Shown one piece after another: positions 13,178-55,353 of a stretch of 64,000 nt of DNA (the first letter of the stretch is position 1; the number at the start of each line of letters is the position of its first letter). Made by a program: the position numbers and the translations under genes. The notes under the pieces were generated by a model. That model was not told the origin of the DNA. It saw only the letters and a list, made by a program, of their open reading frames with translations, and made no database searches. Source of the DNA: Candidatus Poseidoniaceae archaeon (GTDB lineage Archaea > Thermoplasmatota > Poseidoniia > Poseidoniales > Poseidoniaceae); contig CALSTM010000003.1 of assembly GCA_943789275.1 (NCBI GenBank), positions 596,053-660,052 on the forward strand, given 5' to 3'.

Positions 13178-13501
13178 ATGAGAGGGGACGCCGTAGGTAT
13201 GCCTCTCTTTCAATCGGGCCACTCTGCTGTGTTGAACAGAAAGTCCATCAAGTCAATTTGGCTTGCAGTTTTGATGGTTTCAATGTCGCTTTCTGTTGGC
13301 ATCGTTGAATTGAACCGGACACCGTTGGTAGATGCCATTGGTGTAGCAAGTGTTGGAGCAGGCTGTGCGTTTATCACTCGGGCCAGCGGCGAGGCAATCT
13401 ATGTCGATCCGGTCAACGGTTCGGATGCTTGGGACGGCACCTGGTCGTGTCCAAAAGCAACACTTTCCGATGCTCTGAACGACTCCATTTCAGAACGATG
13501 A
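13178..13501 (+). CDS. N-terminal signal-peptide segment of giant locus 2. It ends at a stop and continues in frame +1.
   Basis: The signal peptide ...KSIWLAVLMVSMSLSVGIVELN matches that of gene 1. YVDPVNGSDAWDGTWSCPKATLSDALNDS is the usual N-terminal lead-in of right-handed beta-helix proteins. The continuation (ND)EIVLYSGRYHENVTVDG lies in the next frame from about 13479. Confidence 0.5.
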   Translation: MRGDAVGMPLFQSGHSAVLNRKSIKSIWLAVLMVSMSLSVGIVELNRTPLVDAIGVASVGAGCAFITRASGEAIYVDPVNGSDAWDGTWSCPKATLSDALNDSISER

Positions 13502-16500
13502 AATCGTACTGTACAGCGGGCGGTATCACGAAAACGTCACTGTTGATGGCAAGGACAACCTTCTGATTCGTGCAGCCGATGGAGCCCGTGTTGTCTTTGA
13601 CGGTACTCGAAGCATTACTGAAGATTTAGGTGGTGTTTGGGGTGCAGCCGACAGCGATGGAATCCAAGAAGTCACTTTGCCTGTTGATGGCTGGCAACTG
13701 TTCCTTGCCTACGAAGAACAAGTTCCTGCTCGATGGCCAAATGCCCAATTCTCTGATGAAACGGTCTTCAATCGTTCGTACTGGGCTGAAGGCACATTGA
13801 CCGGTTCAAACAATGCCTACACGCAAGGCTGGTTGACAGATGCTGGTCCTGAAACAGGTGTTCACACAGGCCTCAATGAAACAATTAACGCCACAGGCCT
13901 CGACCCTGAAGGGGCTATTGCGGTGATGAACCTCGGTTCGTTCCGCTCCAACAGCCGTGTCATCACCGATTGGAATTCGGCCAACGGGACGTTTGCATAC
14001 GATGGCACTGGCGTAGGTTGGAAAACCAAGCATCACGCTTACTTCCTTGAGGGCAAGCGAGAACTCATCGATGTCGATGGTGAATGGTGGTTCAACAATG
14101 CAATCAACCGCCTGCATTACAAAACGCCAAGCGGGCAGAATGCAAACAATTTGGATTTGCGTGTCAAGGTACAACCGTTTGCGATGAGCGTTGAAAACTC
14201 CGACGGCGTGACCATCCAAGGCCTCGATTTCTTTGGAACGACGGTCAACTTCAACGAATGCGATGGATGCAGTTTCACCAATTCGACCCTCGAATATCCA
14301 AGCACCTCAAAGCGTGGATTGGGTATTGCCGGCGAATCAGAAGATGACCGTTGGATGACACGTTTCTATCGTTCAACCAACTCGTTTGTCGACAACATTT
14401 CCATCACCAACACCGACGGTGGCGCTCTTGAATTCCAAGGGTCTGCGGGTCAGTCGCACAACAACACGGTGAACAATTCCTACTTCCACGCCATCGACTG
14501 GTCAGCTGCCGACCAGAAAGGACTGATGGTCACAATTTACGAGGGAGGCCGAGACATGTACTTCACCAACAACACCGTTCACTTGACCGGGGCTTCATCC
14601 GTACTCTCCATTGGTGATGCGCCCAAGGTGTTCTACAACGAAGTCTGGGATGTTGGGCATTTGCAAACTGATGGCGCTGTTGTTCAGATCATGCAAGGTG
14701 AGGCCCCAGGTGCTGAAGTTGCTCACAACTGGATTCATGACATCATCAAGTACGGTGCCCGGTTTGATGCACCCATTGGAGAAGCGGGAGAAGGCCGGAA
14801 TGGAACCATGCATCACAATGTCATTTGGAATGTAACGGGCGGTTTGATGGTTAAGGGGGACTATCACGACGTCCACAACAACACGGTGTTCAATTCCTCA
14901 GATGGCAAAAATGACATCATTGCCCTCACCGATGGCGAGATCAACAACAAAAATTCGACGTTTCACCGCAATGCGGTGGATAAGATGGCCGACCATCGCT
15001 CAGGCTCATGGTCGCTTTATCCACTTCCCGCTGGGACGTATTGGAACAACTGGAACGGCTACGTCAACACCACGGATACGGTTTGGAATCAACTGGTTGA
15101 CCCTGCCAATTACGATTTCAGACCGAAGACCAACTCCCATCTTGACAACATGAGTGCGGGTGCATACGATGCTGGTGTGAGCAATCCGTGGACGGCCGGT
15201 ATTTCTTGGACATACACGACGCCCGATGCACCGGTCGAAGGGTGTATGCTCGATTATGCTGACAACTACGATGCAGACGCCACGCTATCAGACGGCTCGT
15301 GCTCCTTCGCATCGTATACGCCACCGGCCACGCTCGACCTCCGTCTCCATCTTGACCCAACCAACAGCAGTTCCTACAGCGGCAGCGGCACCAACGTCGC
15401 TGACCTTTCTGGGTTCAACAACTACGGAACCGTCGCCGCCGCTGGACCGACATGGGACGGCGATTTCACACGCTTCTCCTACGATGGGGCGTGCACTGGC
15501 TCGACCCCGAACCTGGTTTGCGATGAGATCGAAGTTTCTGACTCAACGAGCTTGCGCCCGGGCGGAAACGACTGGTCGGTATCAGTTTGGTTCAACGCCT
15601 CAACGCACCAACACAGCGTGATACTCGGCGCCTTCGACGACGGAGGGGCAGCAGTGGATGTTGGATGGGCCATCCGAATGAGAGCATCAGGTGGCATCTA
15701 TGCAAATGTGGGAACCACTTCCAACAATTCGGCCGCATGGACGTCAGAAGCATCCATCGATACGGACCGCTGGTATCACGTGGTCTTGGTTGCAGACCCG
15801 GGAAATACCCTCAGACTCTATGTTGATGGGCAAAACGTCGGAAGCGGTTCCTTGTCTGGAAGTGGAGCCCTGCGCAATGTAAGCAACAGCCTCTTCATCG
15901 CCTCCTACAACGGCGGTGAATATTCTCAGACCTTTGATGGACAAGTTGGTTCCGTCATGGCCTTTGCCGATGCACTCAACGCCACCACCATCAATCAAAT
16001 CTACAATGCAAGCAAGGGTGTGTACAGCAACACGACCACCCTGTCCTTCCCTCAATCTTCACCGACCTTGCTCCTCGGTCAAACATACAGTTTCCCCATG
16101 ACTGTCGCCAACGGTGAGATCACGACGTCCTATTCGCTCACGGGAACCTTGCCAAGCGGCATGAATTTCGAATCGAGCAACGGTACGATTTGGGGAACGC
16201 CAACGGCGGCTATGTCAACCACGAGCTACACCGTGACGGCCAACAACTCAGCCGGCACCTACTCGACCTCGTTCTCGTTGACATCGCAACATGCGGCACC
16301 GTACGATTTGGCCTACGCGCCAGAGAACATGACCCTTGAGAAGGGTACGGCCATGACGACCAACACGCCGAGTGTGAGCGGGGGCGCCATCACATCTTGG
16401 GAAATCAACCCCTCCGTGCCAACTGGACTTTCCTTTAGCACCTCAACCGGTGCCATCAGTGGTACGCCTTACGTGTTGCAAACAACAGCAACCACGTACA

Positions 16501-19500
16501 CGATATGGGCCAACAATTCAGGCGGAAATGCTTCAGCACAGGTCAACATCACCATCAACGATGAAGTGCCGATTATTTCCTATTCGTATGATGACATTAC
16601 CGGTACCAAGAGCGTGGCCATCAGCCCCCATTCTGGTCCAACTACGAGCGGTGGGACCATCACCTCATGGGAGATTTCACCATCACCAGGTTCTGCGTTC
16701 CACTTTAATTCCGCAAATGGCTACATCAGCGGAACTCCGGGGATTCTTCTGGCTAGAACCCAATACACCATTTGGGCCAACAATTCAGGTGGTTCGTCCG
16801 TTGCCTATGTCAACGTGACCATCAACGATGCAGCGCCGAACGCGTTGGGTTATTCTCCAGAAAATATGACACTCGAGAAGGATACAGCGATGACGCCGAA
16901 CCTTCCTTCGGTCAGTGGTGGAACCATCACGTCATGGGAAATCAGTCCTTCTCTGCCGAGCGGTCTGACATGGGGGGCCTCGGATGGGAAAATCAGTGGA
17001 ACACCCGCCGTTCTGCAAACGACGACGGTTACGTACACGATTTGGGCCAACAACTCAGGTGGTTCAGATTCCGCTCAAGTGAACATCACCATCAACGACC
17101 AACTCGCATCTGCAACCTATCCTTCAACCGTTGAAGTATCCAACGACCGAGCGATGACGACGGTCTCGCCGACCGTCACCGGTGGAGCGGTCATCTCGTG
17201 GGTCATCGTGCCTTCACTCTCCTCAGGCCTCAATTTCGGTAGTAGCAACGGAAGCATCTGGGGCACGCCAACAGGATTGTTGGAGAACGCCACCTACACC
17301 GTCTATGCGAACAACAGCGGCGGTTCAACCAGCATTACCTTCACGCTCGGGCTCAACTGGACGCTGACGCCAAGTGCCGAGGGTGCCTTCATCACCCGCA
17401 ACAGTTCCATTGCCAGCGACATCACGTGGGAATGGGATTACGATCCGCTTGAAGCTCAGAACCTTTCATTGGTGACTGGAGAATGGAACACCTGTGCCCT
17501 TGATAGCAATCAAAACGTGTTTTGTTGGGGACGAAACGGCAACGGTCAAATCGGCAACGGACAAACTGGAACGTCTGGTTGCGGTACATCAGGCCACAAG
17601 TGCAAGGACATTCCAACAGCAACGAACGATTTGGGCTCGGACGTGATCTCCCTTGCCTTTGGCCACCAGCATGCATGTGGCTTGCTTGACACTGGTGCCG
17701 TGAAGTGTTGGGGCCGAAACAATGCAGGGCAACTTGGAACCAGCGGTGGAGACAAGGATACGCCTCAAACCATCAATCTCGGGTCAGGGCGAACCGCTAC
17801 GAGCATCTACGCCGGTGGCCACTACACCTGCGCCATCCTCGATGACGCCTCCGTCAAGTGCTGGGGGGAGAATGGGAACGGTCAACTCGGTATTGGTTCA
17901 AACTCGAACGCCAACACACCGACCACCATTAACACCCTCGGGTCAGGTCGCACGGCTATTTCTTTAGCAACCGCCATGAGTGCAGTCTGTGCCCTCCTCG
18001 ATGACGGTTCAGTCAAGTGTTGGGGAGCCTCCGCAAATGGCCAGTTAGGCAATGGGGGTACCAGTTCAAATCTGAAGAGTCCACCTGCATCTGCAATTAA
18101 CCTCGGAACCGGCCGTACTGCAAAAGCCATCACAGGTGGCGAATCCCATTTCTGCGCCATCCTCGATGACGATTCCATCAAGTGTTGGGGCAATGGATTC
18201 AATGGGAAACTAGGAACCGGGACAACTTCCCACAGATCAACACCAACCTCAACCAGCGGAAGTTTCGCTACAGGTCGCTATGCGGTCGCCATTGACGCTG
18301 GCTACGATCACACCTGTGCCATTCTCGATAACGGCCAACTCACATGCTGGGGTTCTGATTCTGATGGCCAACTGGGTAACGGCGCTACCACGGGTACGAA
18401 ATCATCGATTCAATCCACAACCGTCACTCTTGGGTCGGGACGAACGGCCATTTCGCTTTCTGCAGGTGGAGAGCACACCTGTGCGCAACTGGACAATGGA
18501 CAACTCAAGTGCTGGGGGAATCGAGCAGACGGTCAAGTTGGCGACAACGGGAATTTCAACAATCCGTCCGATCGCACGAGCCCTTCCTCCGTATCCAACA
18601 ACAACCACGGCGGATATACCTATCTCAATACGGGCGTCATGCCTTCTTCCGCTGTTACTGGCGCTACCTGCGAGATCTCGCCTTCCCTCCCAACCGGCCT
18701 CAGTTTGACCGCCGGCACCTGCACCATCACCGGCACACCGACCGCTACAGCCAGCAACGCCACCTACACCATTTGGGCCAACGTTTCCGGCACATCGTAC
18801 AGCGGTCAAATCTGGCTTGAAGTCGGTTTGAATGCACCGGACATTTCCTATTCGTCTTCGACCTATACCTACACCAAGGACATAGAAATTTTCACGCTCA
18901 ACCCAACCAACGTCGGTGGCGAAGTGACAACTTGGGCCATCAACGCAACGTTGCCATCAGGCCTTACATTCGAGACCAGTAACGGTACAATTTGGGGCAC
19001 ACCGGACACGATTACGGCATCAACCACCTACACGGTATGGGCGAACAATTCCGCTGATTCAGATTCCTTCACCATCACGTTCACCGTAAACGATGCTACT
19101 CCGAATTTCTATTACGGCAGCGCAAGCGGTGGAGGCGCACACACACTTGTCCTCTATCTGGATCAGACCATGAATCCACTCACGCCGACCCAGGCATCCG
19201 GGGGTGGAGCGATCACTTCGTGCAGCAGTTCACCATCACTGCCTTCTGGGCTGTCGTTGAGTTCAACATGTGTCCTTTCAGGAACACCTGATGCAACCGC
19301 TACCGGGGCCTTCTACACCATCACAGGAACCAACACAGGCGGTAGCGATACAGCATCGTTGTACATCGAAATCCGCTCCTATGGTGGAACATTGAGCGTG
19401 ACACCAAGCAACACTGAAGGCAGCGTGAACAGTTCCATCTCAGACATCACGATGTCCTATGCGCATCAAATCAGCAACTACGGTTGGACATCTGGTGTAA

Positions 19501-22500
19501 GCAACACGACCACGACCCTCAGCAATAATTTCCTAACCGCAGGTGGAACGCACCTGCTCGGCATTGATTCGGGCGATCAAGGCGAGATGGTCGTTGTCTA
19601 TGCACATAACGATACGAGTTCCGCCAGTGGCACCTACAGCTTGGCCATGATGTACCGCTGGGGCGGAACATGGACTGAAACCATTCTCGACACCGGCACA
19701 GATACGGGGTATCATCCATCGGTTGCCATCGATCGTCAGGGCGCAATCCACATCGCCTACATCGATGATCACAACGACGAACTTCGTTATGCTACCAATG
19801 CTTCAGGGTCGTGGGTCTTCACAACCTTGGGAAGTTCAACCTACGACAACGATGACGGACGTGGAACGGCGATTGTCGTTCACCCAATTACAGATGCCGT
19901 TCACATTGTGACAACGATCAACGATAACACCTATCGTGATTTACAATATCACACCAATGAAAGTGGTTCTTGGGTGAATGAGACCATCACCAATACGCTC
20001 TCGGATGAAGGTCATGACCCTGCTATGGCGATGGATGGCGACGGAAATCTCCACGTCGCTTACTATTGCGACGATGGTTGTAGCGATTTGCGTATGTCCA
20101 GCCGAATCAATGGCGTTTGGCAAAACGAAACGGTTGCGAGCACCCTTAACATTGGAAACGATCCTGACATTGCCATCGATTCACAGGGTACGATTCACAT
20201 CGTGTCACAGTACCTCAATACCAAACGTATCTATCTCCATTCCGGTACGCCAGGAAGTTGGACTGAACAAACAGGGCTCTCAGGAGGAAACGCTCACTGG
20301 CCTGTGGTATCGGTTGATTCAAATGATGCTGTCCACATCTCCTATCATTTTGGAAACACACAAAAAGATGTGATGTACATGACCAACGCTTCTGGCTCTT
20401 GGTCAACAGCGTCCATGATTGAAGGATACGGTGGCTGGGGCAGTGAAATGGTCATCGATGCCAACGATGACATCTTCATTCCGAACGTCGCTCCAGGAAT
20501 AACAGAGATCCAATTGACCACAGTCAAGGGTTCAGGACAAGGTTTGACAGCCCGTCCAACCTATGACATTGCACCGATGCTTCCTGACGGTTTGATCATG
20601 AACTGGCGTAATGGAACCATTTCGGGCACACCAACAGAAGCCCTTGCCAACACAACCTTCACCGTCACAGTCACCGCCCTCGGAACCACCACCACATCGG
20701 CCTTCACGCTCTTCATCACCGGCGCTCCCGGTGCTATCGCTTACAGCGACATCTCAGGGACAAAGGGTACGGCCATCACCCCCGTCACACCGTCCATCAC
20801 CACCAACGGCACGACCGGTAGCGTGACCTCGTGGACCATCAGTCCAACTTTGCCAAGCGGGCTTTCATTCGGTACGAGCAATGGAACGATTTGGGGTACG
20901 CCAACAGTGGTTGTTTCCGGAGCGGTGTTCACGATTTGGGCGAACAACTCGGTCGGGTCCAAGTCAACAACGGTCAACATCACTGTCAATGATGAAGCAC
21001 CTGACATCTCTTACAATCCAGACTGGTTTGTTTTGACCAAGGGCACTGTCATGTCACCAACAGCGACACCAACCAATACAGGTGGTGCGATTCCATCGGG
21101 CATTGTCGACTCTGGAAGCAGTCTTGGTAGTCACACCTCAATCGCCCTTGATTCGAATGGATACAAGCATATTTCCTACTATCATGCCACCAATAAGGAC
21201 CTCATGTATGCAACCGATAAGAGCGGTTCTTGGGTCACCACTTCGATTGATACATCTGGAATTGTTGGCCATTACACCTCCATCGCCATTGATTCCAATG
21301 ATGATGTTCACATTTCCTACTATGATTCCACCAATGGCGACCTCAAGTATGCAACCGATAAGAGCGGTTCATGGGTCACTACTTCGATTGACACCTCTGG
21401 AATTGTTGGCCATTACACTTCCATCGCCATTGATTCCAATGACGACGTGCACATTTCCTACTATGACACCACCAATGGCGACCTCAAGTATGCAACCAAT
21501 AAGAGCGGTTCTTGGGTCACCACTTCGATCGATACATCTGGGACTTCGATTTTTAGCTCTTACACCTCCATTGGCATTGATTCCAATGATGATGTTCACA
21601 TTTCCTACTATGATTACACCAATGGCGACCTCAAGTATGCGACCGATAAGAGCGGTTCTTGGGTCACCACTTCGATTGATACATCTGGAATTGTTGGCCA
21701 TGACACCTCCATCGCCATTGATTCCAATGATGATGTTCACATTTCCTACTATGATTACACCAATGGCGACCTCAAGTATGCAACCGATAAGAGCGGTTCT
21801 TGGGTCACCACTTCGATCGATACATCTGGAAATGTTGGCGCTTACACCTCCATCGCCATTGATTCCAATGATGATGTGCACATTTCCCACCAAGATTTCG
21901 GGAATGGCGACCTCAAGTATGCAACCGATAAGAGCGGTTCTTGGGTCACCACTTCGATCGATACCTCTGGAAATGTTGGCGCTTACACCTCCATCGCCAT
22001 TGATTCCAACGATGATGTGCACATTTCTTACTATCACATCACCAATACCGAACTCAAGTATATCGGTCTTGATTCTTCTTCGAATGTGCTTGGCTATTCG
22101 GTCAGTCCAGCCCTACCTGCAGGATTGAGTTTGGATTTGGGTACGGGTGAAATTTCAGGCACACCAACTGCGCTTTCAACCAACACGACATACACGATAA
22201 CGGTACGCAACTCTGGCGGTACTAACACAACGACGATCACAATCGAGGTTCTCGACCAGTTGCCGACCATTGCTTACTCGCCAGAGAACTTGACGCTGAC
22301 CAACAACACGGCCAGCACCGATTTGCCGCTGACTGCAACGGTCACGGGTTCGGGGACGATCACCTCTTGGGCGATCAACGCAACCTTGCCTGCTGGCCTC
22401 AACTTCGGAACCAGCAACGGTACGATTTGGGGCATTCCGACCGTGCTCCAAACAACGGCAACAACCTACACGGTTTGGGCCAACAACAGCGGTGGTTCCT

Positions 22501-23309
22501 CCTCAGCTACGGTGACCATCACGATCAACGACGAGGCACCAGGTCCATTCGAGTACAACCCAGAGAACAACACGCTGACGAACAACACCTACGTGCATCT
22601 TGAGCCTGACTTCATCAACATGACAACGGGCAACGGCAGTTCTTGGTCCACCGCACCAGCGGGTTATCAATTGACGAGAACTGATTGGCCGAATGAACCG
22701 TGCCTCAATCATACCTACAATGGCACAACTTATGTCTCATATAATTCCAAATTGCACGGTTACGGTATTGCCAACAACACGTTATGGCTCATCAACAATA
22801 CCATCCAAGGTGTCGGTTGTTACACGTACTCTAAATGGCCCTCAGGCACTGGTTACTCGGAAGGTCTTAGCCAAATGTACGGGACATCGCTGTATTTCAT
22901 TGGTAAAGATGGTTCGGATCGAAAGTTGTACGGCTACGGTATGGAAAATGAAACCGTTTGGGTGGAGAGTACTGCGGAACCCCATGTATGGAGCATGCTG
23001 GTTGACGATGTCATGTACTTTTATGGCGAAACGGGTAACAGCGGGTATGAACTCCACGGTCACAACCTGAGCAACGGCACCACTTGGATGCTGGACGATA
23101 TTTACTCTGGCTCAGGAAGTATCACTGGGCCGGCTCTAGGACAGAATTGGCCGGTCTTGGTGGGATCGACATTTGTGTTTGTGGCAGTCTTCAGTAACGG
23201 TAGTACCTACAGTCGTGAGACATGGGCGCACAACATCAGCAACGGGACATCTTGGCGCCTCTCAATCGTATATGATGCATACCACAGCTGGCGCTCAGGT
23301 GATTGGTGA
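13479..23309 (+). CDS. Main segment of giant locus 2. It contains a pectin-lyase-like right-handed beta-helix, a LamG/ConA-like lectin domain, Ig-like domains, RCC1-like repeats, YATDKSGSWVTTSIDTSG...IAIDSNDDVHISYYD propeller-like repeats, and kelch-like repeats.
   Basis: The open frame extends upstream of the listed TTG (13677) to a stop at about 13476. It shows PbH1-like beta-helix rungs (NNTVxxS..., NxIHDIIKYGARFD). The LamG-like block is WSVSVWFNASTHQHSVILGAFDDGG...RLYVDGQNVGSGS. RCC1 repeats lie at about 17470-18560. Seven tandem 135-bp repeats lie at about 21100-22080. Confidence 0.75.
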   Translation, partial: TTPFQNDEIVLYSGRYHENVTVDGKDNLLIRAADGARVVFDGTRSITEDLGGVWGAADSDGIQEVTLPVDGWQLFLAYEEQVPARWPNAQFSDETVFNRSYWAEGTLTGSNNAYTQGWLTDAGPETGVHTGLNETINATGLDPEGAIAVMNLGSFRSNSRVITDWNSANGTFAYDGTGVGWKTKHHAYFLEGKRELIDVDGEWWFNNAINRLHYKTPSGQNANNLDLRVKVQPFAMSVENSDGVTIQGLDFFGTTVNFNECDGCSFTNSTLEYPSTSKRGLGIAGESEDDRWMTRFYRSTNSFVDNISITNTDGGALEFQGSAGQSHNNTVNNSYFHAIDWSAADQKGLMVTIYEGGRDMYFTNNTVHLTGASSVLSIGDAPKVFYNEVWDVGHLQTDGAVVQIMQGEAPGAEVAHNWIHDIIKYGARFDAPIGEAGEGRNGTMHHNVIWNVTGGLMVKGDYHDVHNNTVFNSSDGKNDIIALTDGEINNKNSTFHRNAVDKMADHRSGSWSLYPLPAGTYWNNWNGYVNTTDTVWNQLVDPANYDFRPKTNSHLDNMSAGAYDAGVSNPWTAGISWTYTTPDAPVEGCMLDYADNYDADATLSDGSCSFASYTPPATLDLRLHLDPTNSSSYSGSGTNVADLSGFNNYGTVAAAGPTWDGDFTRFSYDGACTGSTPNLVCDEIEVSDSTSLRPGGNDWSVSVWFNASTHQHSVILGAFDDGGAAVDVGWAIRMRASGGIYANVGTTSNNSAAWTSEASIDTDRWYHVVLVADPGNTLRLYVDGQNVGSGSLSGSGALRNVSNSLFIASYNGGEYSQTFDGQVGSVMAFADALNATTINQIYNASKGVYSNTTTLSFPQSSPTLLLGQTYSFPMTVANGEITTSYSLTGTLPSGMNFESSNGTIWGTPTAAMSTTSYTVTANNSAGTYSTSFSLTSQHAAPYDLAYAPENMTLEKGTAMTTNTPSVSGGAITSWEINPSVPTGLSFSTSTGAISGTPYVLQTTATTYTIWANNSGGNASAQVNITINDEVPIISYSYDDITGTKSVAISPHSGPTTSGGTITSWEISPSPGSAFHFNSANGYISGTPGILLARTQYTIWANNSGGSSVAYVNVTINDAAPNALGYSPENMTLEKDTAMTPNLPSVSGGTITSWEISPSLPSGLTWGASDGKISGTPAVLQTTTVTYTIWANNSGGSDSAQVNITINDQLASATYPSTVEVSNDRAMTTVSPTVTGGAVISWVIVPSLSSGLNFGSSNGSIWGTPTGLLENATYTVYANNSGGSTSITFTLGLNWTLTPSAEGAFITRNSSIASDITWEWDYDPLEAQNLSLVTGEWNTCALDSNQNVFCWGRNGNGQIGNGQTGTSGCGTSGHKCKDIPTATNDLGSDVISLAFGHQHACGLLDTGAVKCWGRNNAGQLGTSGGDKDTPQTINLGSGRTATSIYAGGHYTCAILDDASVKCWGENGNGQLGIGSNSNANTPTTINTLGSGRTAISLATAMSAVCALLDDGSVKCWGASANGQLGNGGTSSNLKSPPASAINLGTGRTAKAITGGESHFCAILDDDSIKCWGNGFNGKLGTGTTSHRSTPTSTSGSFATGRYAVAIDAGYDHTCAILDNGQLTCWGSDSDGQLGNGATTGTKSSIQSTTVTLGSGRTAISLSAGGEHTCAQLDNGQLKCWGNRADGQVGDNGNFNNPSDRTSPSSVSNNNHGGYTYLNTGVMPSSAVTGATCEISPSLPTGLSLTAGTCTITGTPTATASNATYTIWANVSGTSYSGQIWLEVGLNAPDISYSSSTYTYTKDIEIFTLNPTNVGGEVTTWAINATLPSGLTFETSNGTIWGTPDTITASTTYTVWANNSADSDSFTITFTVNDATPNFYYGSASGGGAHTLVLYLDQTMNPLTPTQASGGGAITSCSSSPSLPSGLSLSSTCVLSGTPDATATGAFYTITGTNTGGSDTASLYIEIRSYGGTLSVTPSNTEGSVNSSISDITMSYAHQISNYGWTSGVSNTTTTLSNNFLTAGGTHLLGIDSGDQGEMVVVYAHNDTSSASGTYSLAMMYRWGGTWTETILDTGTDTGYHPSVAIDRQGAIHIAYIDDHNDELRYATNASGSWVFTTLGSSTYDNDDGRGTAIVVHPITDAVHIVTTINDNTYRDLQYHTNESGSWVNETITNTLSDEGHDPAMAMDGDGNLHVAYYCDDGCSDLRMSSRINGVWQNETVASTLNIGNDPDIAIDSQGTIHIVSQYLNTKRIYLHSGTPGSWTEQTGLSGGNAHWPVVSVDSNDAVHISYHFGNTQKDVMYMTNASGSWSTASMIEGYGGWGSEMVIDANDDIFIPNVAPGITEIQLTTVKGSGQGLTARPTYDIAPMLPDGLIMNWRNGTISGTPTEALANTTFTVTVTALGTTTTSAFTLFITGAPGAIAYSDISGTKGTAITPVTPSITTNGTTGSVTSWTISPTLPSGLSFGTSNGTIWGTPTVVVSGAVFTIWANNSVGSKSTTVNITVNDEAPDISYNPDWFVLTKGTVMSPTATPTNTGGAIPSGIVDSGSSLGSHTSIALDSNGYKHISYYHATNKDLMYATDKSGSWVTTSIDTSGIVGHYTSIAIDSNDDVHISYYDSTNGDLKYATDKSGSWVTTSIDTSGIVGHYTSIAIDSNDDVHISYYDTTNGDLKYATNKSGSWVTTSIDTSGTSIFSSYTSIGIDSNDDVHISYYDYTNGDLKYATDKSGSWVTTSIDTSGIVGHDTSIAIDSNDDVHISYYDYTNGDLKYATDKSGSWVTTSIDTSGNVGAYTSIAIDSNDDVHISHQDFGNGDLKYATDKSGSWVTTSIDTSGNVGAYTSIAIDSNDDVHISYYHITNTELKYIGLDSSSNVLGYSVSPALPAGLSLDLGTGEISGTPTALSTNTTYTITVRNSGGTNTTTITIEVLDQLPTIAYSPENLTLTNNTASTDLPLTATVTGSGTITSWAINATLPAGLNFGTSNGTIWGIPTVLQTTATTYTVWANNSGGSSSATVTITINDEAPGPFEYNPENNTLTNNTYVHLEPDFINMTTGNGSSWSTAPAGYQLTRTDWPNEPCLNHTYNGTTYVSYNSKLHGYGIANNTLWLINNTIQGVGCYTYSKWPSGTGYSEGLSQMYGTSLYFIGKDGSDRKLYGYGMENETVWVESTAEPHVWSMLVDDVMYFYGETGNSGYELHGHNLSNGTTWMLDDIYSGSGSITGPALGQNWPVLVGSTFVFVAVFSNGSTYSRETWAHNISNGTSWRLSIVYDAYHSWRSGDW
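21100..22080 (+). repeat. About seven tandem 135-bp (45-aa) repeats, YATDKSGSWVTTSIDTSGxVGxYTSIAIDSNDDVHISYYDxTNGDLK. The units are BNR- or propeller-like.
   Basis: The periodicity is visible in both the protein and the nucleotide sequence. Several copies are nearly identical. Confidence 0.8.
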
Positions 23310-23508
23310 TGTGGCTTACTTTGGTCAACAAACATCTTCTGGAATTTTCTCGCTCTATGCTTACAATGCTTCAAATGCGACGCTATGGATGGTTTCAGGG
23401 AGTAATGCTAATCGTGGTGTTGCTGTAACTATTGACGGTGTATTGTATGGTAGTCGTGGTCTACAGTTCTCTTCCAGGTGGCTCTACACTCTGGGCGCAC
23501 AACCCTAA
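23173..23508 (+). CDS. Short frame-shifted fragment of giant locus 2 carrying kelch-like LYAYNASNATLWMVSG repeats.
   Basis: It continues the xLWAHNxSNGTxW repeat family seen at the end of the preceding ORF and the start of the following one. Confidence 0.35.
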   Translation: MCLWQSSVTVVPTVVRHGRTTSATGHLGASQSYMMHTTAGAQVIGDVAYFGQQTSSGIFSLYAYNASNATLWMVSGSNANRGVAVTIDGVLYGSRGLQFSSRWLYTLGAQP

Positions 23509-25891
23509 CAACGGAACCTCGTGGGTAATTGCTCCAAACATTGCTCCAGGAATTAATCAGGCTTTTGAGATAGCCGGAACGCTGTATTACAGGGGCGGTT
23601 TATCTTCCAGCCAAGAAGTATGGGCGTATGAGCCGACCAATACGACGGCATGGAAGGTCACGGACATCACGCTCCCTCAATCCGGCCTCTTCTTTGCCCT
23701 TGGTGACCTCATTTACTTTACAGGCAGCAACGCCACGACCAGTGGTGTTTGGGCGCACAGCACTTCCAACCATTCGACCTGGTTTGTGAGCAATCCATTC
23801 TCAAGCAACGCCGCCACCGCGGTTGCTGTTGTGAACGGTACGCTTTACTTGGGTAATTCTGGAATGGCTGCTCATCAGCCAACCTCCATCAACTACCGGA
23901 CGAACACGGGTGGACCCGTCACCTCGTGGGCGATCAACGCCAGCCTGCCGAGTGGCCTTTCCTTCAGCACGACCAACGGCAGCATCTACGGCACGCCGAC
24001 CGAGCTGTGGACACAAACGTCTTACATGGTCTGGGCCAACAACAGCGGTGGCTCAACCGTGGCCTACCTCAACATCACCGTGGTTGACGAGTTACCAACG
24101 CTTTCGTATTCTCCAGAGAACTTGACACTGACCAAGAATCAGACAAGCACCGATTTGCCACTGACTGCAACGGTCACGGGTTCGGGGACGATCACGTCCT
24201 GGGCCATCAGCCCAGTACTGCCTAGCGGTTTGTCCTTTGGAACGAGCAACGGAACGATTTGGGGCACTCCGACGGTCTTGCAGACCAGTCCAGTGACCTA
24301 CACCGTTTGGGCGAACAACAGCGGAGGTTCATCCTCAGCCACGGTCAACATCACTGTCAACGACGAAGCGCCTGACATCTCTTACAATCCAGACTGGTTT
24401 GTTCTTACCAACAATACGGCCATGTCTCCGATTGCAACACCGACGAATTCTGGTGGTGCGATTCCGTCAACCGTCATCGATTCAACTGGCAATGTTGGAG
24501 AAGATACTTCCATCGCCATTGATTCAAATGGAAACAGGCACATTTCCTACTACGACGAAACTGGTTCCGACCTCAAGTATGCGACGGATAAAACTGGTTC
24601 TTGGGTCACCGTTTCCGTTGACACAACAGGGTTTGTGGGAACTGACTCTTCTATCGCCATCGATTCCAACGATGCAGTCCACATTTCCTACTATGATTAC
24701 ACCAATAGCGACCTCAAGTACGCCACTTGTTCAAGCGGTTGCACAATCGCAAGCAATTGGGACGATGTCTCCGTTGACACAACAGGGTTTGTGGGAACTG
24801 ACTCTTCTATCGCCATCGATTCCAACGATGCAGTCCACATTTCCTACTATGATTACACCAATAGCGACCTCAAGTACGCCACCTGTTCAAGTGGTTGCAC
24901 AACCGCAAGCAACTGGGACGATGTTTCCGTTGAAACAACAGGTGTCGTGGGATCTTTCACTTCTATCGCCATCGATTCCAATGATGCAGTCCACATTTCC
25001 TACTATGATTCCACCAATAGGGATCTCGAGTACGCCACCTGTTCAAGTGGTTGCACAACCGCAAGCAATTGGATCACTACTTCGGTTGAAACGACAGGTG
25101 TTGTGGGATATTACACTTCAATCGCCATCGATTCAACCGATGCAGTCCACATTTCCTACTTCGATAATACCAATGATGACCTCAAGTACGCCACATGTTC
25201 AAGCGGTTGCACAACAGCAAGCAATTGGGTCGATGTCTCCGTTGACATAACAGGTCATGTGGGACGTTACACTTCCATCTCCATCGATTCTAACGATAAT
25301 GCCCACATTTCCTACTATGATACCACCAATAGCGATCTCAAGTACGCCACCTGTTCAAGCGGTTGTACAACCGCAAGCAATTGGGACAAGGTCTCCGTTG
25401 ACACATCAGGTAGTGTGGGATATTACACTTCAATCGCCATCGATTCCAGCGATACTATCCACATTTCCTACTTCGATAATACCAATGACGACCTCAAGTA
25501 CGTCGTTCTCGATTCTTCTTCGAATATGTATGGCTATTCCATCAGTCCAGACCTGCCTGCTGGATTGAGTTTGAACTTTACAAGTGGCGAAATCTCAGGA
25601 ACGCCAACTGCACTATCAACCAACACGACCTATACTATTACAGTGAGAAACAGTGGTGGTGTGAACACGACCACGATCACAATCGAGGTTCTCGACCAGT
25701 TGCCGACCATTGCTTACTCGCCAGAGAACTTGACACTGACCAAGAATCAGACCAGCACCGATTTGCCGCTGACTGCAACGCGTCATGGGTTCGGGGACAA
25801 TCACGTCCTGGGCCATCAGCCCAGCTTTGCCAAGCGGTCTTATCCTTTGGAACGAGCAACGGAACGATTTGGGGAACGCCGACATCATTGA
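23432..25891 (+). CDS. Frame-shifted fragment of giant locus 2 containing kelch-like repeats, Ig-like domains and YATCSSGCTTASNW...IAIDSNDAVHISYYD repeats.
   Basis: The ORF ends by running out of frame inside an Ig-like unit. Comparing 25781-25800 with its intact upstream copy at 24161-24180 shows 1-nt insertions. Confidence 0.55.
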   Translation: MTVYCMVVVVYSSLPGGSTLWAHNPNNGTSWVIAPNIAPGINQAFEIAGTLYYRGGLSSSQEVWAYEPTNTTAWKVTDITLPQSGLFFALGDLIYFTGSNATTSGVWAHSTSNHSTWFVSNPFSSNAATAVAVVNGTLYLGNSGMAAHQPTSINYRTNTGGPVTSWAINASLPSGLSFSTTNGSIYGTPTELWTQTSYMVWANNSGGSTVAYLNITVVDELPTLSYSPENLTLTKNQTSTDLPLTATVTGSGTITSWAISPVLPSGLSFGTSNGTIWGTPTVLQTSPVTYTVWANNSGGSSSATVNITVNDEAPDISYNPDWFVLTNNTAMSPIATPTNSGGAIPSTVIDSTGNVGEDTSIAIDSNGNRHISYYDETGSDLKYATDKTGSWVTVSVDTTGFVGTDSSIAIDSNDAVHISYYDYTNSDLKYATCSSGCTIASNWDDVSVDTTGFVGTDSSIAIDSNDAVHISYYDYTNSDLKYATCSSGCTTASNWDDVSVETTGVVGSFTSIAIDSNDAVHISYYDSTNRDLEYATCSSGCTTASNWITTSVETTGVVGYYTSIAIDSTDAVHISYFDNTNDDLKYATCSSGCTTASNWVDVSVDITGHVGRYTSISIDSNDNAHISYYDTTNSDLKYATCSSGCTTASNWDKVSVDTSGSVGYYTSIAIDSSDTIHISYFDNTNDDLKYVVLDSSSNMYGYSISPDLPAGLSLNFTSGEISGTPTALSTNTTYTITVRNSGGVNTTTITIEVLDQLPTIAYSPENLTLTKNQTSTDLPLTATRHGFGDNHVLGHQPSFAKRSYPLERATERFGERRHH

Positions 25892-25942
25892 TGACGCTCA
25901 AGACGTTCACAATTTCGGCGAGCAATAGCGGCGGTTCAGTCA

Positions 25943-27331
25943 ATGCAACCGTTAACATCACTGTCAATGATGAAGCCCCTGATATCGTATTCTCCAGACT
26001 GGTTTGTTCTCACCAACAATACGGCCATGTCGCCAACGGCTACACCAACCAATTCAGGTGGTGCAATCCCGTCTGGAATTATTGCTGAACCGTCGCAAGT
26101 TGGCTCTCAGTATTCCGAGGGGAGATACAATTCTATTGCCGTTGATTCGAATGGCGTCGCACATGTTGTTTATTTTGGCAACTATAATTCACAAACGTTG
26201 TATTACGCAACCAATGCCAACGGTTCATGGGTTACGACTGTGCTCAAGAATCAGAATGGTATAACCAACGGAGCATCAATTGTCATTGACTCTAACGATA
26301 CCATCCACATCAGTTATTCACACAGGTTTAGCCAATACAGTATGGGGAATAACCTCTATTACTCGACTTGTTCTTCATCTTGTTCATCTGCATCATCATG
26401 GAGTGGTGGTTTGGTCGTCGGAGGTGGGTATTACAACGATATTGCGATCGATACCAACGGTACATTGCACATCTCTCACTGGACAGGTTCCTCGCTCCAG
26501 CATTCGACCTGTTCCTCTTCTTGTTCAACAGCATCGTCTTGGACCACAACCTCGGTTACTTCGGTGACCCAACAGATGAGGATTTCAATGACAACCGATT
26601 CCAACAACAGTATACACATCCTTTACTCAGAGGGCTACCCAACAAGAGACCTCAACTATGCGACCTGCTCTTCTGGATGCACATCGTCATCATCGTGGTC
26701 TACAGTTGAGCTCAATGCTTCCAGCACTTCCACTTTTATAGGGGATCAATCCATTGCTGTTGATTCAAACAACGGTATTCACATAACATATCAATTCAAT
26801 ACTAACCTGACCTATGCGACCTGTTCTTCTTCATGTACATCAGCATCATCATGGACCAATACCACGGTTCCCCCTGTCAAGGCTTTATACGGCCTCGGGG
26901 AAATCGCCATTGATTCCAACGACCATCTCTACATCTCGTATGCAAAGGGTTCTTCCAATGCAGCATCTAAACTAACCTATGCGACCTGTTCTTCTTCATG
27001 TACATCAGCATCGTCGTGGACCAACACCACGTTTGACACAAATGGCGGTAATCAACGGTCAATGGCTCTTGATTCCAACGACCGTGTGCACATCTCCTAT
27101 CACTCAGGTAGTACGGATAAATCCCTTAGGTACCTCGCAGTTGAACCATCATCGATTGTTTATGCTTACTCCATCAGTCCAGCCTTGCCTGCAGGGTTAA
27201 GTTTGGAAATCAGCACAGGTGAGATCTCAGGAACGCCGACTGAGTTGTCGACCAATACAACATACACGATTACGGTACGCAATGCGGGGTGGCACAAATA
27301 CGACGACCATCACCATCGAAGTCAACGATGA
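25943..27331 (+). CDS. Frame-shifted fragment of giant locus 2 with YATCSSSC...IAVDSNNGIHITY propeller-like repeats and an Ig-like domain.
   Basis: The same repeat family continues. The end runs out of frame at ...TYTITVRNAG|WHKYDD, whereas intact copies read ...RNSGGTNTTTITIEV. Confidence 0.55.
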   Translation: MQPLTSLSMMKPLISYSPDWFVLTNNTAMSPTATPTNSGGAIPSGIIAEPSQVGSQYSEGRYNSIAVDSNGVAHVVYFGNYNSQTLYYATNANGSWVTTVLKNQNGITNGASIVIDSNDTIHISYSHRFSQYSMGNNLYYSTCSSSCSSASSWSGGLVVGGGYYNDIAIDTNGTLHISHWTGSSLQHSTCSSSCSTASSWTTTSVTSVTQQMRISMTTDSNNSIHILYSEGYPTRDLNYATCSSGCTSSSSWSTVELNASSTSTFIGDQSIAVDSNNGIHITYQFNTNLTYATCSSSCTSASSWTNTTVPPVKALYGLGEIAIDSNDHLYISYAKGSSNAASKLTYATCSSSCTSASSWTNTTFDTNGGNQRSMALDSNDRVHISYHSGSTDKSLRYLAVEPSSIVYAYSISPALPAGLSLEISTGEISGTPTELSTNTTYTITVRNAGWHKYDDHHHRSQR

Positions 27332-27458
27332 GGTCCCGACAATAGCGTACTCGCCGAACGATTTGGACCATGACCAATAACACGGCAAGCAGCGACCTTC
27401 CGCTCTCGCCGACCATCACAGGTTCGGTGAAATCACGTCGTGGGCCATCAACGCCATC

Positions 27459-30400
27459 TTGCCAGCGGTCTGTACCTTCGAGACCAGCAACGGTACCATT
27501 TGGGGAACACCGACCGAACTGTGGACGCAAACGGCCTACATGGTCTGGGCCAACAACAGCGGTGGGTCCGCCGTCGCCTACCTCAACATCACCGTAGTTG
27601 ACGAACTACCAACGATTGCTTACTCGCCGAACGATTTGGATTTGACCAACAACACGGCAAGCAGTGACCTTCCGCTCTCGCCGACCGTGACAGGTTCTGG
27701 TGAATTTACGTCGTGGGCCATTAACGCAAGTCTTCCGAGCGGACTTACCTTCGAGACCAGCAACGGAACCATTTGGGGAACACCGACCGAACTGTGGACG
27801 CAAACGGCCTACATGGTCTGGGCCAACAACAGCGGTGGGTCCGCCGTCGCCTACCTCAACATCACCGTAGTTGACGAACTACCAACGATTGCTTACTCGC
27901 CGAACGATTTGGATTTGACCAACAACACTGCTTCGAGCGATCTTCCACTTTCGCCGACCGTGACAGGTTCTGGTGAATTTACGTCGTGGGCCATTAACGC
28001 AAGTCTTCCGAGCGGACTTACCTTCGAGACCAGCAACGGAACCATTTGGGGCACACCGACCGAACTGTGGACGCAAACGGCCTACATGGTCTGGGCCAAC
28101 AACAGCGGTGGCTCAAGCGAGGCCTACCTCAACATCACCGTAGTTGACGAACTACCAACGATTGCTTACTCGCCAAACGACTTGGATTTGACCAACAACA
28201 CGGCAAGCAGTGACCTTCCACTCTCGCCGACCGTGACTGGTTCTGGTGAATTTACGTCGTGGGCCATTAACGCAAGTCTTCCGAGCGGTTTGACTTTCGG
28301 TACGAGCAACGGAACAATTTGGGGCACACCGACCGAACTGTGGACGCAAACGGCCTACATGGTCTGGGCCAACAACAGCGGTGGCTCAAGCGAGGCCTAC
28401 CTCAACATCACGGTCAACGATCAAATGCCAACGCTTTCGTATTCACCTGCCAACCTCACGCTCTACAAGAACACCGCCAGCAGTGATTTGCCGTTGAACG
28501 CCACGCTGACCGGTCCTGGAGAGATCACTTCGTGGACCATCGCACCCGGTTTGCCGAACGGTTTGACCTTTGAGACAAGCAACGGAACGATATGGGGCAT
28601 TCCAACACAGCGTATGACCACCACACAGTTCACGGTCTGGGCCAACAACAGCGGTGGGTCCGCCGTCGCTTACCTCAACATCACGGTGCTCCACGAAGCA
28701 CCGATGTTCAGCTATTCATCCTACAACTTGACGCTGGTCAACAACACGGCCATGACTGCAATGGGTGCGCCGATTACGGGTGGCGACGTCACATCGTGGG
28801 AAGTTGAACCGGCTTGGCCAACAGGTCTCTATTTAGGGTCCTTATATGGAACAATTTGGGGAACGCCAACCGTGGTTCAAAACATGACCATGTACCAGAT
28901 TTGGGGCAACAATTCAGGTGGCTCTCACTCTGTCTTCATCAACATCACCGTCGATGACCGAGCACCTTCGTTCACCTACAACCCAGAAAACCTCACCCTG
29001 ACCAACAACACGGTCAGCACTGACCTACCGCTTGTACCAACGGTTTCGAATACTGGAGATGCTCCAACAGGTTGGGTCTTGATGGGCACCTTGCCTGCAG
29101 GTCTCAACTTTGGCACCAACAACGGAACCATTTGGGGTACGCCAACCGAGCTATGGACGACCACAAATTACACCGTATACGGGAACAACACCGGCGGTTC
29201 GTTCAATGTGAGCATCAACATTACGGTCAACGATCAGATGCCAACGCTTTCGTATTCTCCAGAGAATTTGACATTCTACAATGATACTGCCAGCAGCGAC
29301 CTTCCACTTTCGCCGACCATCACCGGTTCAGGCGAGTTTGTATCATGGGCCATCAGTCCATCAGAGCCAAGCGGTCTTTCCTTTGATACTTCGAACGGAA
29401 CGCTCAGTGGAACGCCAACTGAACTGCTGACACGTACAATGTTCACGATTACGGCGACCAACACCGGTGGAACAGCAACAGCGTACATCAACATCACAAT
29501 TGTTGACCAAGTGCCGACGATTGCGTACTCGCCAAACGACTTGAGCATGACCAACAATACGGCGAGCAGTGACCTACCGCTTTCGCCAACCATCACTGGT
29601 TCAGGTGAGGTTGTGTCTTGGAGCATCAGTCCATCAGTGCCAAGTGGTTTGGCCTTTGATACTTCAAACGGAACGCTCAGCGGCACGCCGACTGAATTGC
29701 AGACACGGACAATGTACACCATCACAGCAACAAACACCGGTGGGACAGCAACAGCGTACATCAACATCACAATTGTTGACGAAGTGCCGACGATTGCGTA
29801 CTCGCCAAACGACTTGAACATGACCAACAACACGGCAAGCATTGACCTTCCACTTTTGCCGACCATCACCGGTTCAGGCGAGTTCGTATCGTGGGCCATC
29901 AGCCCATCAGAGCCAAGCGGTCTTTCCTTTGATACTTCGAACGGAACGCTCAGCGGAACGCCGACTGAATTGCTGACACGGACAATGTACACCATCACAG
30001 CAACAAACACCGGTGGAACGGCAACAGCCTACATCAACATCACAATCGTTGACGAAGTTCCGACGATTGTCTACTCACCAAACGATTTGAACATGACCAA
30101 CAACACTGCCTCGCTCGATCTTCCGCTCTCGCCAACAGTGACCGGTTCTGGCGAGTTCGTGTCCTGGGCCATCAGCCCTTCAGTGCCAAGCGGTTTGGCC
30201 TTCAGCACCTCAACAGGTGTGCTCAGTGGAACGCCGACAGAATTGCTGACACGTAGTATGTTCACGATTACGGCGACCAACACTGGTGGCTCAAGTATCG
30301 CCTACATCAACATCACCATTGTTGACGAGGTGCCGACCATTGCTTACTCGCCAAACGACTTGAGCATGACCAACAATACGGGGAGCAGTGACCTTCCACT

Positions 30401-30521: not shown

Positions 30522-30870
30522 CACGTAGCATGTTCACGATTACCGCAACCAACACCGGTGGAACGGCAACAGCGTACATCAACATCACAATCGTTGACGA
30601 ACTTCCAACGATTGCATACTCGCCGAACGATTTGATTATGACCAACAATACTGTTTCGAGTGATCTTCCGCTTTCGCCGACCATCACCGGCTCTGGCGAG
30701 ATTGTATCGTGGGCCATCAGCCCATCAGAGCCAAGCGGTCTTTCCTTTGATACTTCGAACGGAACGCTCAGCGGAACGCCGACTGAATTGCTGACACGTA
30801 CAATGTACACCATCACAGCAACAAACACAGGTGGGACAGCAACAGCGTACATCAACATCACCGTTCTTGA
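29230..30870 (+). repeat. About six tandem 273-bp Ig-like-domain repeats at roughly 90% identity. They span the frameshift at about 30430-30520.
   Basis: VPTIAYSPNDLxMTNNTASxDLPLxPTITGSGExVSWxISPSxPSGLxFDTSNGTLSGTPTELxTRTMxTITATNTGGTATAYINITIVDE recurs six times. Confidence 0.8.
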
Positions 30871-39709: not shown

Positions 39710-39805
39710 GGGGGGGTTATTGCTTCGGATGTCTTCAAGAGTTTGCCGGACATTTGCAAAATTTTGAATCGTAAAGTCATTATTGGTTGGCAGGCAGGGA
39801 CAACC

Positions 39806-55334: not shown

Positions 55335-55353
55335 CGAATCACTCCACTTTTGT

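Follow-up and report, generated by a model that had tools for sequence, protein, structure and literature searches.

Beta-propellers whose blades are more than 60% identical are known as highly repetitive propellers, and the Asp-box group is among the lineages that produce them (Pereira and Lupas 2022, PMC9218822). Here we analyse an array of seven propeller-like units, six of them near-identical, encoded by a Candidatus Poseidoniaceae archaeon (GenBank assembly GCA_943789275.1). The array lies at 21066-22058 (+ strand), inside the open reading frame (ORF) 13677..23309, on a 64,000-nucleotide stretch of contig CALSTM010000003.1 (positions 596,053 to 660,052 of the forward strand) that we refer to as the window. 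Several described systems provide the background for this comparison. The Asp-box, S-x-D-x-G-x-T-W, carries Asp or Asn as motif residue 5 and, five residues on, an aromatic side chain as residue 10 (PMC2716378). Gly stands two residues after the Asp and Ser or Thr two before it, and the motif forms a hairpin between outer strands 3 and 4 (PMC2716378). Among BNR_4 propellers, the GH145 and PL42 enzymes are seven-bladed with blade-specific catalytic residues, for example the His48 of GH145, which sits in a posterior pocket, or the Arg/His/His/Tyr set of PL42, contributed by blades 1, 3, 4 and 6 (PMC8377490). The lectin PHL binds sugar between its blades, at sites that recur around the ring (PMC5584973). 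Lastly, the ligand-binding domains of RTX adhesins bud from split immunoglobulin (Ig)-like domains, with their termini adjacent and ligand binding at the far end (PMC12077191).

The seven-unit array and its predicted fold

The seven units measure 47, 47, 47, 49, 47, 47 and 47 amino acids and start at 21066, 21207, 21348, 21489, 21636, 21777 and 21918. Tandem Repeats Finder (TRF) delimits the array to 21133-22061, with a period of 141 bp, 6.5 copies, 87% matches and a score of 1354. Among units 2-7, pairwise identity is 85-98% at the protein level and 86-98% at the nucleotide level; unit 1 has diverged and shows 36-43% identity to them. A hidden Markov model (HMM) of the unit scores units 2-7 at E values of 4e-26 to 9e-34, which excludes a chance origin of the repeat. 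Median blade identity is ~0.87 vs a family median of 0.50, and just 6 of 332 family arrays reach 0.8 or more, placing this array at the regular extreme of its family. An initial annotation of the window had described about seven near-identical tandem repeats and suggested that they are unusually regular propeller blades. The count is confirmed and the identity values support the regularity, but the reported length of 45 residues and period of 135 bp need correction to 47 residues and 141 bp; the consensus string given with that description is itself 47 residues long. The longer unit, unit 4, carries an in-frame 6-nucleotide insertion in its first variable loop. We considered paired sequencing frameshifts as the source of its extra residues and rejected them, given a clean in-frame insertion plus two substitutions relative to the orthologue.

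AlphaFold2 modelled the segment 21084-22103 from a 50-sequence alignment with a predicted local distance difference test (pLDDT) score of 94.7 and a predicted template modelling score (pTM) of 0.93. The model contains 28 evenly spaced strands, equivalent to seven four-stranded blades. Structure prediction of a seven-repeat segment was suggested with the initial description as a check, and we are confident from the model that the array folds as one seven-bladed beta-propeller. The first half of each unit consists of a W-V-T-T-S-I-D strand, a T-S-G-x loop, a V-G-x-Y-T-S-I-A-I strand and a D-S-N-D-D turn; the second half continues with a V-H-I-S-Y-Y-D strand, an x-T-N-G loop, a D-L-K-Y-A-T strand and a D-K-S-G-S turn. 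Both x-containing loops are predicted to lie at one end of the blade, with the conserved turns and both chain termini at the other. After the last blade, a linker, YIGLDSSSNVLG (22059..22094, + strand, assigned from the sequence), leads back to an Ig-like domain, and its first residues form the last propeller strand (DSSP strand E323-329 of the model).

In the DSSP assignment, an Asp-box-like turn follows the L-K-Y-A-T strand and precedes W-V-T-T-S. In this turn, A-T-D-K-S-G-S-W, Asp and Trp are as far apart as in the Asp-box. Family-wide, the Asp site (position 4) is N in 55% and D in 7%, and position 9 is W in 96%. The Asp-box Gly is missing from the window turn, where Ser occupies its place and Gly follows one residue later, and the first Ser/Thr is likewise missing, being Ala in the window turn and Ala in 82% family-wide. 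The embedded Asp-box-like element proposed earlier is supported, with the D...W spacing retained and the Gly and first Ser/Thr not. Pfam BNR-repeat models were absent from the matches listed at E <= 0.1 for the window.

A He_PIG Ig-like domain is split by the propeller, whose two termini, judging by strand order, lie next to each other at one end of the barrel. The N-terminal part of the domain is NITVNDEAPDISYNPDWFVLTKGTVMSPTATPTNTGGAIPSG (20976..21101, + strand) and the C-terminal part is YSVSPALPAGLSLDLGTGEISGTPT...TITIEVLDQLP (22095..22265, + strand). The sequences immediately before the propeller (…SYNPDWFVLTKGTVMSPTATPTNTGGAI) and after it (YSVSPALPAGLSLDLGTGEISGTPT…TITIEVLD) resemble two halves of one He_PIG unit. 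Splicing the halves together yields a continuous match to profile positions 12-95 of 96 at 46.0 bits, and an intact native He_PIG unit matches positions 6-96 of 96 at 43.6 bits. Scanned separately against the same profile, the C-terminal half matches positions 45-95 at 41.8 bits and the N-terminal half gives no match. Equivalent flanks surround the other family arrays of the window and those of Poseidoniales homologues.

Loop variation, family and proposed function

Four other Poseidoniaceae metagenome-assembled genomes (MAGs) carry orthologous seven-unit arrays, at 98, 90, 89 and 85% identity. Across 29 blades of 47 residues taken from five orthologues, wide variation is confined to codons 19, 22, 23, 39, 41 and 44, each with 5-9 residue types. 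Codons 19, 22 and 23 belong to the first loop and the following strand start, and codons 39, 41 and 44 to a strand end and the second loop; His, Tyr and Trp are frequent at positions 22, 23 and 39. By the Nei-Gojobori method, the scaffold shows a proportion of synonymous differences (pS) of ~0.20 and of nonsynonymous differences (pN) of ~0.02. The resulting ratio of 0.09 indicates that the gene is real. At the six variable codons, pN is 0.36-0.58. When blades at the same position are compared between genomes, the six codons reach a pN of 0.38-0.47, vs 0.17-0.25 for pS and 0.011-0.023 for pN in the scaffold. The excess of six-codon pN over scaffold pS is significant (Fisher p 2e-4 to 1.2e-3), in a comparison inflated by the choice of the codons after the data had been viewed. 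Partial independent support comes from 3,121 blades sampled across the family, in which positions 19, 22, 41 and 44 account for four of the six positions of lowest conservation.

Scaffold pS is alike (0.19-0.22) within a genome, between blades at the same position and between blades at different positions. Synonymous differences amount to 0.201 for same-position blades of different genomes vs 0.204 for different positions. This equality suggests a mosaic of shared blade variants, which may reflect gene conversion. Recent amplification was rejected as the sole cause of blade near-identity, given a pS of ~0.2, a pN/pS of ~0.09 and an array shared by five genomes.

The family to which these blades belong is large. 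A word-indexed search recovered at least 3,600 relatives, and an exhaustive HMM search of the kind envisaged in the initial annotation, run with HMMER against 1.84 billion cluster representatives, returned 21,720 at E <= 1e-3, 15,049 at <= 1e-10 and 6,008 at <= 1e-30; the 21,720 are clusters at 50% identity drawn from bacteria and archaea. In GTDB, archaea with the domain include Poseidoniales, Thalassarchaeaceae, Bathyarchaeia and methanogens. Bacteria with it include Nitrospiraceae, Brocadia, Planctomycetota, Elusimicrobia, Chloroflexota, Verrucomicrobiota, Eisenbacteria, Firestonebacteria and bacteria of the candidate phyla radiation (CPR). The 3,121 blades come from 266 homologues, where arrays of 7 are commonest (199), followed by 14 (47) and 13 (28), and the modal blade spacing is 47 residues. 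The family consensus begins Y-A-T-N-x-S-G-S-W-x-x-x-T-V-D-S-x-G-x-V-G-x-Y-T-S-I-A-L-D-S-N-G-x-x- and continues H-I-S-Y-Y-D-x-T-N-x-D-L-K, with Y1, W9, D29, H35, Y38, L46 and K47 nearly invariant. The listed partner domains of 43 long representatives are FlgD_ig, PKD, CarboxypepD_reg, MopE, Big_5, BACON, fn3, He_PIG, Big_9, HYR, SdrD_B and Cadherin_5, nearly all of them Ig-like, beta-sandwich or binding modules. The sole enzyme-associated family among the 25 partner families listed is glucodextranase domain B, which is non-catalytic and occurs in one protein. Short homologues bear signal or lipoprotein signal peptides, type IX secretion system (T9SS) tails or dockerins.

No Pfam or NCBIfam match covers the window repeat, in keeping with the earlier statement that it could be assigned to no named Pfam family. 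The Pfam repeats YVTN, PQQ and SBBP gave no above-threshold match for the array. Pfam matches of the array to DUF6913, Lipocalin_4 and Ub-RnfH were sub-threshold, lacked a significant stretch and were treated as repeat-inflated noise. Against PDB sequences, no match was accepted with either the single sequence or the family profile: we rejected as chance or compositional the single-sequence matches to PBP3 (E 0.016) and D-Ala-D-Ala ligase, and the profile matches to the CBM6 domain of a beta-agarase (E 0.004) and to PknD (E 0.49). Homologues do reach the BNR_4 family (PF15892), at E <= 0.001 in 15/50 and at E <= 1e-5 in 15/43, with a best E value of 5.5e-26; the window copy has no BNR_4 match at E <= 0.1. 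Kinship with an established repeat family of the BNR, PQQ or YVTN type, which the initial annotation had raised as an alternative, is therefore weakly visible through BNR_4 in homologues and invisible in the window copy. In the five homologue matches with listed coordinates, the aligned profile positions are ~203-269 of 272, about one blade. Homologues do exceed the whole-protein score threshold of BNR_4, as P0001 does at 92 bits, but only by way of such one-blade matches, repeated five times in P0001. One homologue weakly matches NCBIfam AlphRhmnaseBT3686 (E 1e-6). NCBIfam BP39L_fam_lectin does not match the window copy and matches 1/50 homologues (E 6.2e-7). By structure, Foldseek searches of the PDB rank the Photorhabdus sugar-binding lectins PLL and PHL first (E ~1e-16, TM-score 0.77), followed by GH145, CV39L and PL42, and similarity to PLL/BP39L lectins exceeds that to generic propellers. 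A viral fold library returned only generic propellers of phage and giant-virus proteins at <=20% identity.

We think it fairly probable that the propeller is the multivalent ligand-binding head of an adhesin. A glycan ligand, bound in the manner of a lectin, falls just short of an even bet, and would be the most likely kind of ligand for such a head. The seven-bladed propeller, with its Asp-box-like turn, buds from the split He_PIG domain on the extracellular side of a giant type-I membrane protein of this Poseidoniaceae (Marine Group IIa) archaeon; the Ig-like domains of the protein would serve as the stalk. The N and C termini of the propeller would sit on the face that bears the conserved D-S-N-D-D and D-K-S-G-S-W turns, leaving the other face to display two variable loops per blade, rich in His, Tyr and Trp, and we infer that this variable face binds the ligand. 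Because the scaffold of blades 2-7 is near-invariant, the face offers six or seven similar but non-identical sites, which could confer avidity and tunable specificity, with the variable face setting the specificity. Several points weigh against this interpretation. The placement of the variable loops derives from beta-meander strand order and the DSSP string rather than from model coordinates, and splicing raises the He_PIG score by only ~4 bits over the C-terminal half alone. The six-codon comparison is inflated in the manner described above. Close structural neighbours include the enzymes CylK, Vgb lyase, GH145 and PL42, and diversity on an exposed face might just as well stem from evasion of viruses or grazers as from ligand specificity.

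These last two points lead to rival explanations. A catalytic BNR_4-type propeller (a GH145 rhamnosidase, PL42 lyase or PL24/PL25 ulvan lyase) that degrades algal polysaccharides at the cell surface would suit Marine Group II archaea, which are surface-ocean heterotrophs, and would account for the BNR_4 matches in 15/50 and 15/43 homologues and for the AlphRhmnaseBT3686 match. We nevertheless consider it improbable: the listed BNR_4 matches span a single blade, the window copy lacks even that, and the listed partner families include no catalytic domain. Moreover, blades 2-7 present the same conserved residues in each copy, and this sameness leaves no room for an asymmetric active site. Less remote, and still unlikely in our estimate, is a structural or protective bead of the cell coat whose variable face has been moulded by evasion of viruses or predators for which the protein serves as a receptor, rather than by a ligand specificity of its own. 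Restriction of the variation to exposed loops with pN > pS is what an arms race would produce, the synonymous mosaic of the scaffold is consistent with shuffling among blades, and six paralogous propellers are spread over two genes. Nesting in a split Ig domain and adhesin-like partners across many phyla nonetheless suit a binding head more than a spacer, and enrichment of His, Tyr and Trp at the variable positions is typical of binding sites. A binding head and a target of escape are not mutually exclusive and may coexist.

A further explanation is that near-identity and the count of seven are not biological but products of collapsed or expanded repeats in the assembly, or of a pseudogene. 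It draws on the frameshifts that break neighbouring genes, on the 38 indel columns that separate two assemblies between 23.3 and 30.4 kb, and on contig names suggestive of long-read assemblies. We find it very improbable, since a second assembly and a GenBank MAG carry the identical array and four MAGs carry orthologues, so that the repeat number is not an assembly artefact. Specifically, the region 21000-22200 shows zero differences between the window and the second assembly (L001), and CALSPS010000003.1 (isolate C_MB351, L002) is 100% identical over 340 propeller residues. The same seven units recur in the orthologues of four other MAGs from other samples, and seven blades is also the mode of the family. 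The scaffold pN/pS of ~0.09 further argues that selection acts on the protein.

Sister propellers and the giant genes

With the unit HMM, the six-frame translation of the window yielded six arrays totalling 39-40 blades, every one on the + strand and divided between two giant genes. Array 1, at the N terminus of gene 1 (2607-3687), has seven blades, several with a Cys pair, and was traced through HMM frames p3 and then p1, the reading frame shifting near 2870. Array 2 (5596-6315), also in gene 1, is diverged and has five HMM blades plus a sixth, weak match reaching 6474. In gene 2, the diverged array 3 (19662-20480) has six HMM blades and a seventh recognized upstream by eye. Array 4 is the array described above (21072-22058 by HMM, and supported by TRF and AlphaFold2). 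Array 5 (24443-25498) has seven blades, five of them 51-52 residues long, and is seen as a TRF period of 156 bp, as seven HMM matches and in an AlphaFold2 model. The diverged array 6 (26099-27112) has seven blades, most with a Cys pair, identified by seven HMM matches and in the ORF translation. A diversity-generating retroelement was considered as a possible source of the loop variation; the 39 blade copies counted in that connection all fall within the two giant genes, on the + strand. The initial annotation had pointed to related arrays at 24.5-25.5, 26.3-27.1 and 2.9-3.7 kb; these are real and correspond to arrays 5, 6 and 1. It had thus recognized four of the six and overlooked the two diverged arrays at 5596-6315 and 19662-20480.

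The AlphaFold2 model of array 5 (pLDDT 91.1) contains 28 propeller strands in seven blades, with a short helical turn for each insert. In five of its blades (24719-25498), a C-S-S-G-C-T-T-A-S-N-W insert replaces the Asp-box-like turn T-D-K-S-G-S-W. In these five Cys-pair blades (24.7-25.5 kb) a Cys takes the place of the Asp-box Asp, so that the D...W feature is absent there. The same insert occurs in many blades at 26.3-27.1 kb and 2.9-3.7 kb, and its C-x-x-x-C pair possibly forms a disulfide. The region of array 3 (19.5-21.0 kb) matches NCBIfam PDIAV_lipo below threshold (E 1.3e-6, 28 bits vs a cut-off of 90), as do 3/50 homologues, far under the same cut-off. PDIAV_lipo provides a lead to a related propeller family, without implying membership. 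For array 6, Pfam SBBP reaches only E 0.0086 and 16.5 bits vs a cut-off of 20.5. In three sequences from related Poseidoniaceae MAGs (L004, L005 and L006, at ~4700-6300), a second propeller copy with its flanks lies ~2 kb downstream at ~89% nucleotide identity, which indicates that whole propeller-plus-stalk blocks are duplicated.

There is a slim chance, in our judgement, that the six propellers serve this planktonic archaeon as a cassette system for varying what its surface recognizes. Each cassette would combine a near-invariant 47-residue scaffold, six hypervariable positions and changes in loop length, with gene conversion shuffling these features between blades and between the six paralogues. 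If so, the system could generate fast-changing multivalent specificities or escape variants, a functional analogue of repeat-based variable receptors built on a propeller scaffold.

Gene 2, which carries the seven-unit array, extends over 13199..33121 (+ strand), as delimited from ORFs, Pfam domains, termini and the comparison of indels, and would encode ~6,600 residues if its frame breaks are artefacts. It comprises a signal peptide at 13250-13300, a LamG domain, an RCC1 propeller, many He_PIG domains and the four family propellers. It ends in a single transmembrane helix (32579-32638) and a basic cytoplasmic tail. The signal-peptide-like start, KSIWLAVLMVSMSLSVG (13250-13300), together with the single transmembrane helix and basic tail, supports one gene spanning ~13199-33121. 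Gene 1 (2400..13092, + strand; from ORFs, termini and TRF arrays) encodes ~3,560 residues: a signal peptide at 2400-2453, two family propellers, an RCC1 array, He_PIG arrays, a transmembrane helix at 11953-12021 and a cytoplasmic tail. Its signal peptide, MKSLLLAVLMVSMSLSVG, is nearly identical to KSIWLAVLMVSMSLSVG of gene 2, and the two cytoplasmic tails are similar. Judged by their sequences, genes 1 and 2 are paralogous giant type-I membrane proteins. The tail of gene 1 contains 14-residue repeats rich in Lys, Ala and Asp (12556-12770) and a helix-hairpin-helix-like end.

A comparison with contig_5061 of ENA ERZ10646505 bears on the interrupted frames of gene 2. The two records are 99.48% identical over 21 kb, with 73 substitutions and 38 indel columns, and all differences fall between 23281 and 30427. 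The ORF breaks of gene 2, at 23309/23432, 25891/25943, 27331/27459 and near 30430-30520, adjoin indel differences, and in the ENA record one gene runs through the first break (23309/23432) and ends elsewhere. Proximity of the breaks to indel differences and read-through in the other record suggest that the breaks at 23.3-30.4 kb are probably assembly errors in repeat-rich DNA, not real pseudogenes. Further frame breaks occur near 2870 and at 13498-13677.

Around the family repeats, Pfam identifies He_PIG Ig-like domains, an RCC1 propeller and a LamG domain. RCC1-type propellers are present in gene 1 at 4108-4958 (159-bp period, 5.4 copies) and in gene 2 at ~17480-18520, where the match to Pfam WD40_RLD has an E value of 5.8e-76; each giant protein thus contains two unrelated propeller types. 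Tandem He_PIG units of 261-273 bp occupy 7206-8627, 9146-9950, 27348-28411 and 29284-30861. The 5.2 copies in the first of these arrays are 99% identical, a sign that stalk domains were amplified very recently. Thrombospondin-type-3-like D-T-D-G-D-G repeats adjoin the membrane anchor on its outer side at ~31.9-32.3 kb, and in gene 1 near 11.7 kb; they may account for the thrombospondin genes reported in Marine Group II archaea. The first 500-600 residues of gene 2 (13677 to ~15300) have no Pfam match; the motifs N-x-T/S and H-N-N-T-V recur there, and by eye the segment resembles a right-handed beta-helix. Genes similar to T2SSF and T2SSE, of the type that assembles archaeal type IV pili or archaella, lie ~20 kb downstream of the giant genes (52711-56880, - strand). 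A separate 627-residue protein (39491-41374, + strand) has a weak BNR_2 match (E 1.9e-6) that is under the cut-off.

Comparison with known propellers and adhesin heads

The uncultured Poseidoniales rank among the most abundant archaea in surface seawater. Their attachment targets have been inferred only from archaellum and thrombospondin-like genes (PMC6461757), and our literature search on giant surface proteins of Marine Group II found nothing specific. As the best candidate binding heads of the largest Poseidoniales surface proteins, the propellers offer a concrete, expressible target for the question of attachment. More broadly, a family of 21,720 clusters is served by no dedicated Pfam or NCBIfam model and no sequence-matched structure, and many proteins would gain an annotation from a curated model. 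The combination of a regular scaffold with focused loop variation amounts to a natural repeat scaffold of possible use in protein design.

The BNR_4 enzymes (GH145 BT3686, PL42 FoRham1 and the related PL24/PL25 ulvan lyases) resemble the window propeller in their seven blades and Asp-box-type turns, and its fold matches structures 5mul, 5mum, 7esk and 5uam. The window blades differ in being near-identical and apparently devoid of blade-specific catalytic residues, and in their context of a giant adhesin-like protein. CylK (7ron) and virginiamycin B lyase Vgb (2z2n) are likewise among the best structural neighbours; both are enzymes, at 14-15% identity, and no sequence-level relation to either was found. 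The active site of CylK requires a second, Ca-binding domain. The PLL, PHL, BP39L and CV39L lectins share a similar blade length and regular blades with the window propeller, but sequence identity is 10-16% and the window copy has no family-level sequence match to them. The sugar sites of the PLL lectins are built on Trp pairs. PLL lectins are also small soluble proteins, whereas the window propeller is a domain nested in a giant membrane protein.

Compared with the highly repetitive propellers of Pereira and Lupas, the window array has a similar character: its blades are ~87% identical, above their threshold of 60%, and point to amplification at the level of blades followed by differentiation. 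The window blades differ in that they are no fresh amplification, with a scaffold pS of ~0.2, a presence in five genomes and differences concentrated in two loops. With split-Ig adhesin heads such as that of AhLap (PMC12077191), the window propeller shares its nesting in a split Ig-like domain and termini predicted to lie on one face. The protein described here is an archaeal type-I membrane protein and not an RTX adhesin of a type I secretion system (T1SS), and what buds from its Ig-like domain is a propeller in place of a carbohydrate-binding module (CBM) or vWFA domain. A candidate counterpart of the window propeller is cluster 16 of Monzon et al. 2022 (PMC9210967).

We conclude that the window propeller represents a distinct family without a dedicated curated model, a neighbour of the Asp-box, BNR_4 and PLL-lectin propellers and, by the comparisons made here, a member of none. 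The fold, the Asp-box-like lineage, highly repetitive propellers (PMC9218822) and split-domain adhesin heads were already known. To these the present analysis adds a very large family, delineated here and lacking a dedicated curated model, that resides in giant surface proteins of Poseidoniaceae, is nested in He_PIG domains and shows variation focused in its loops.

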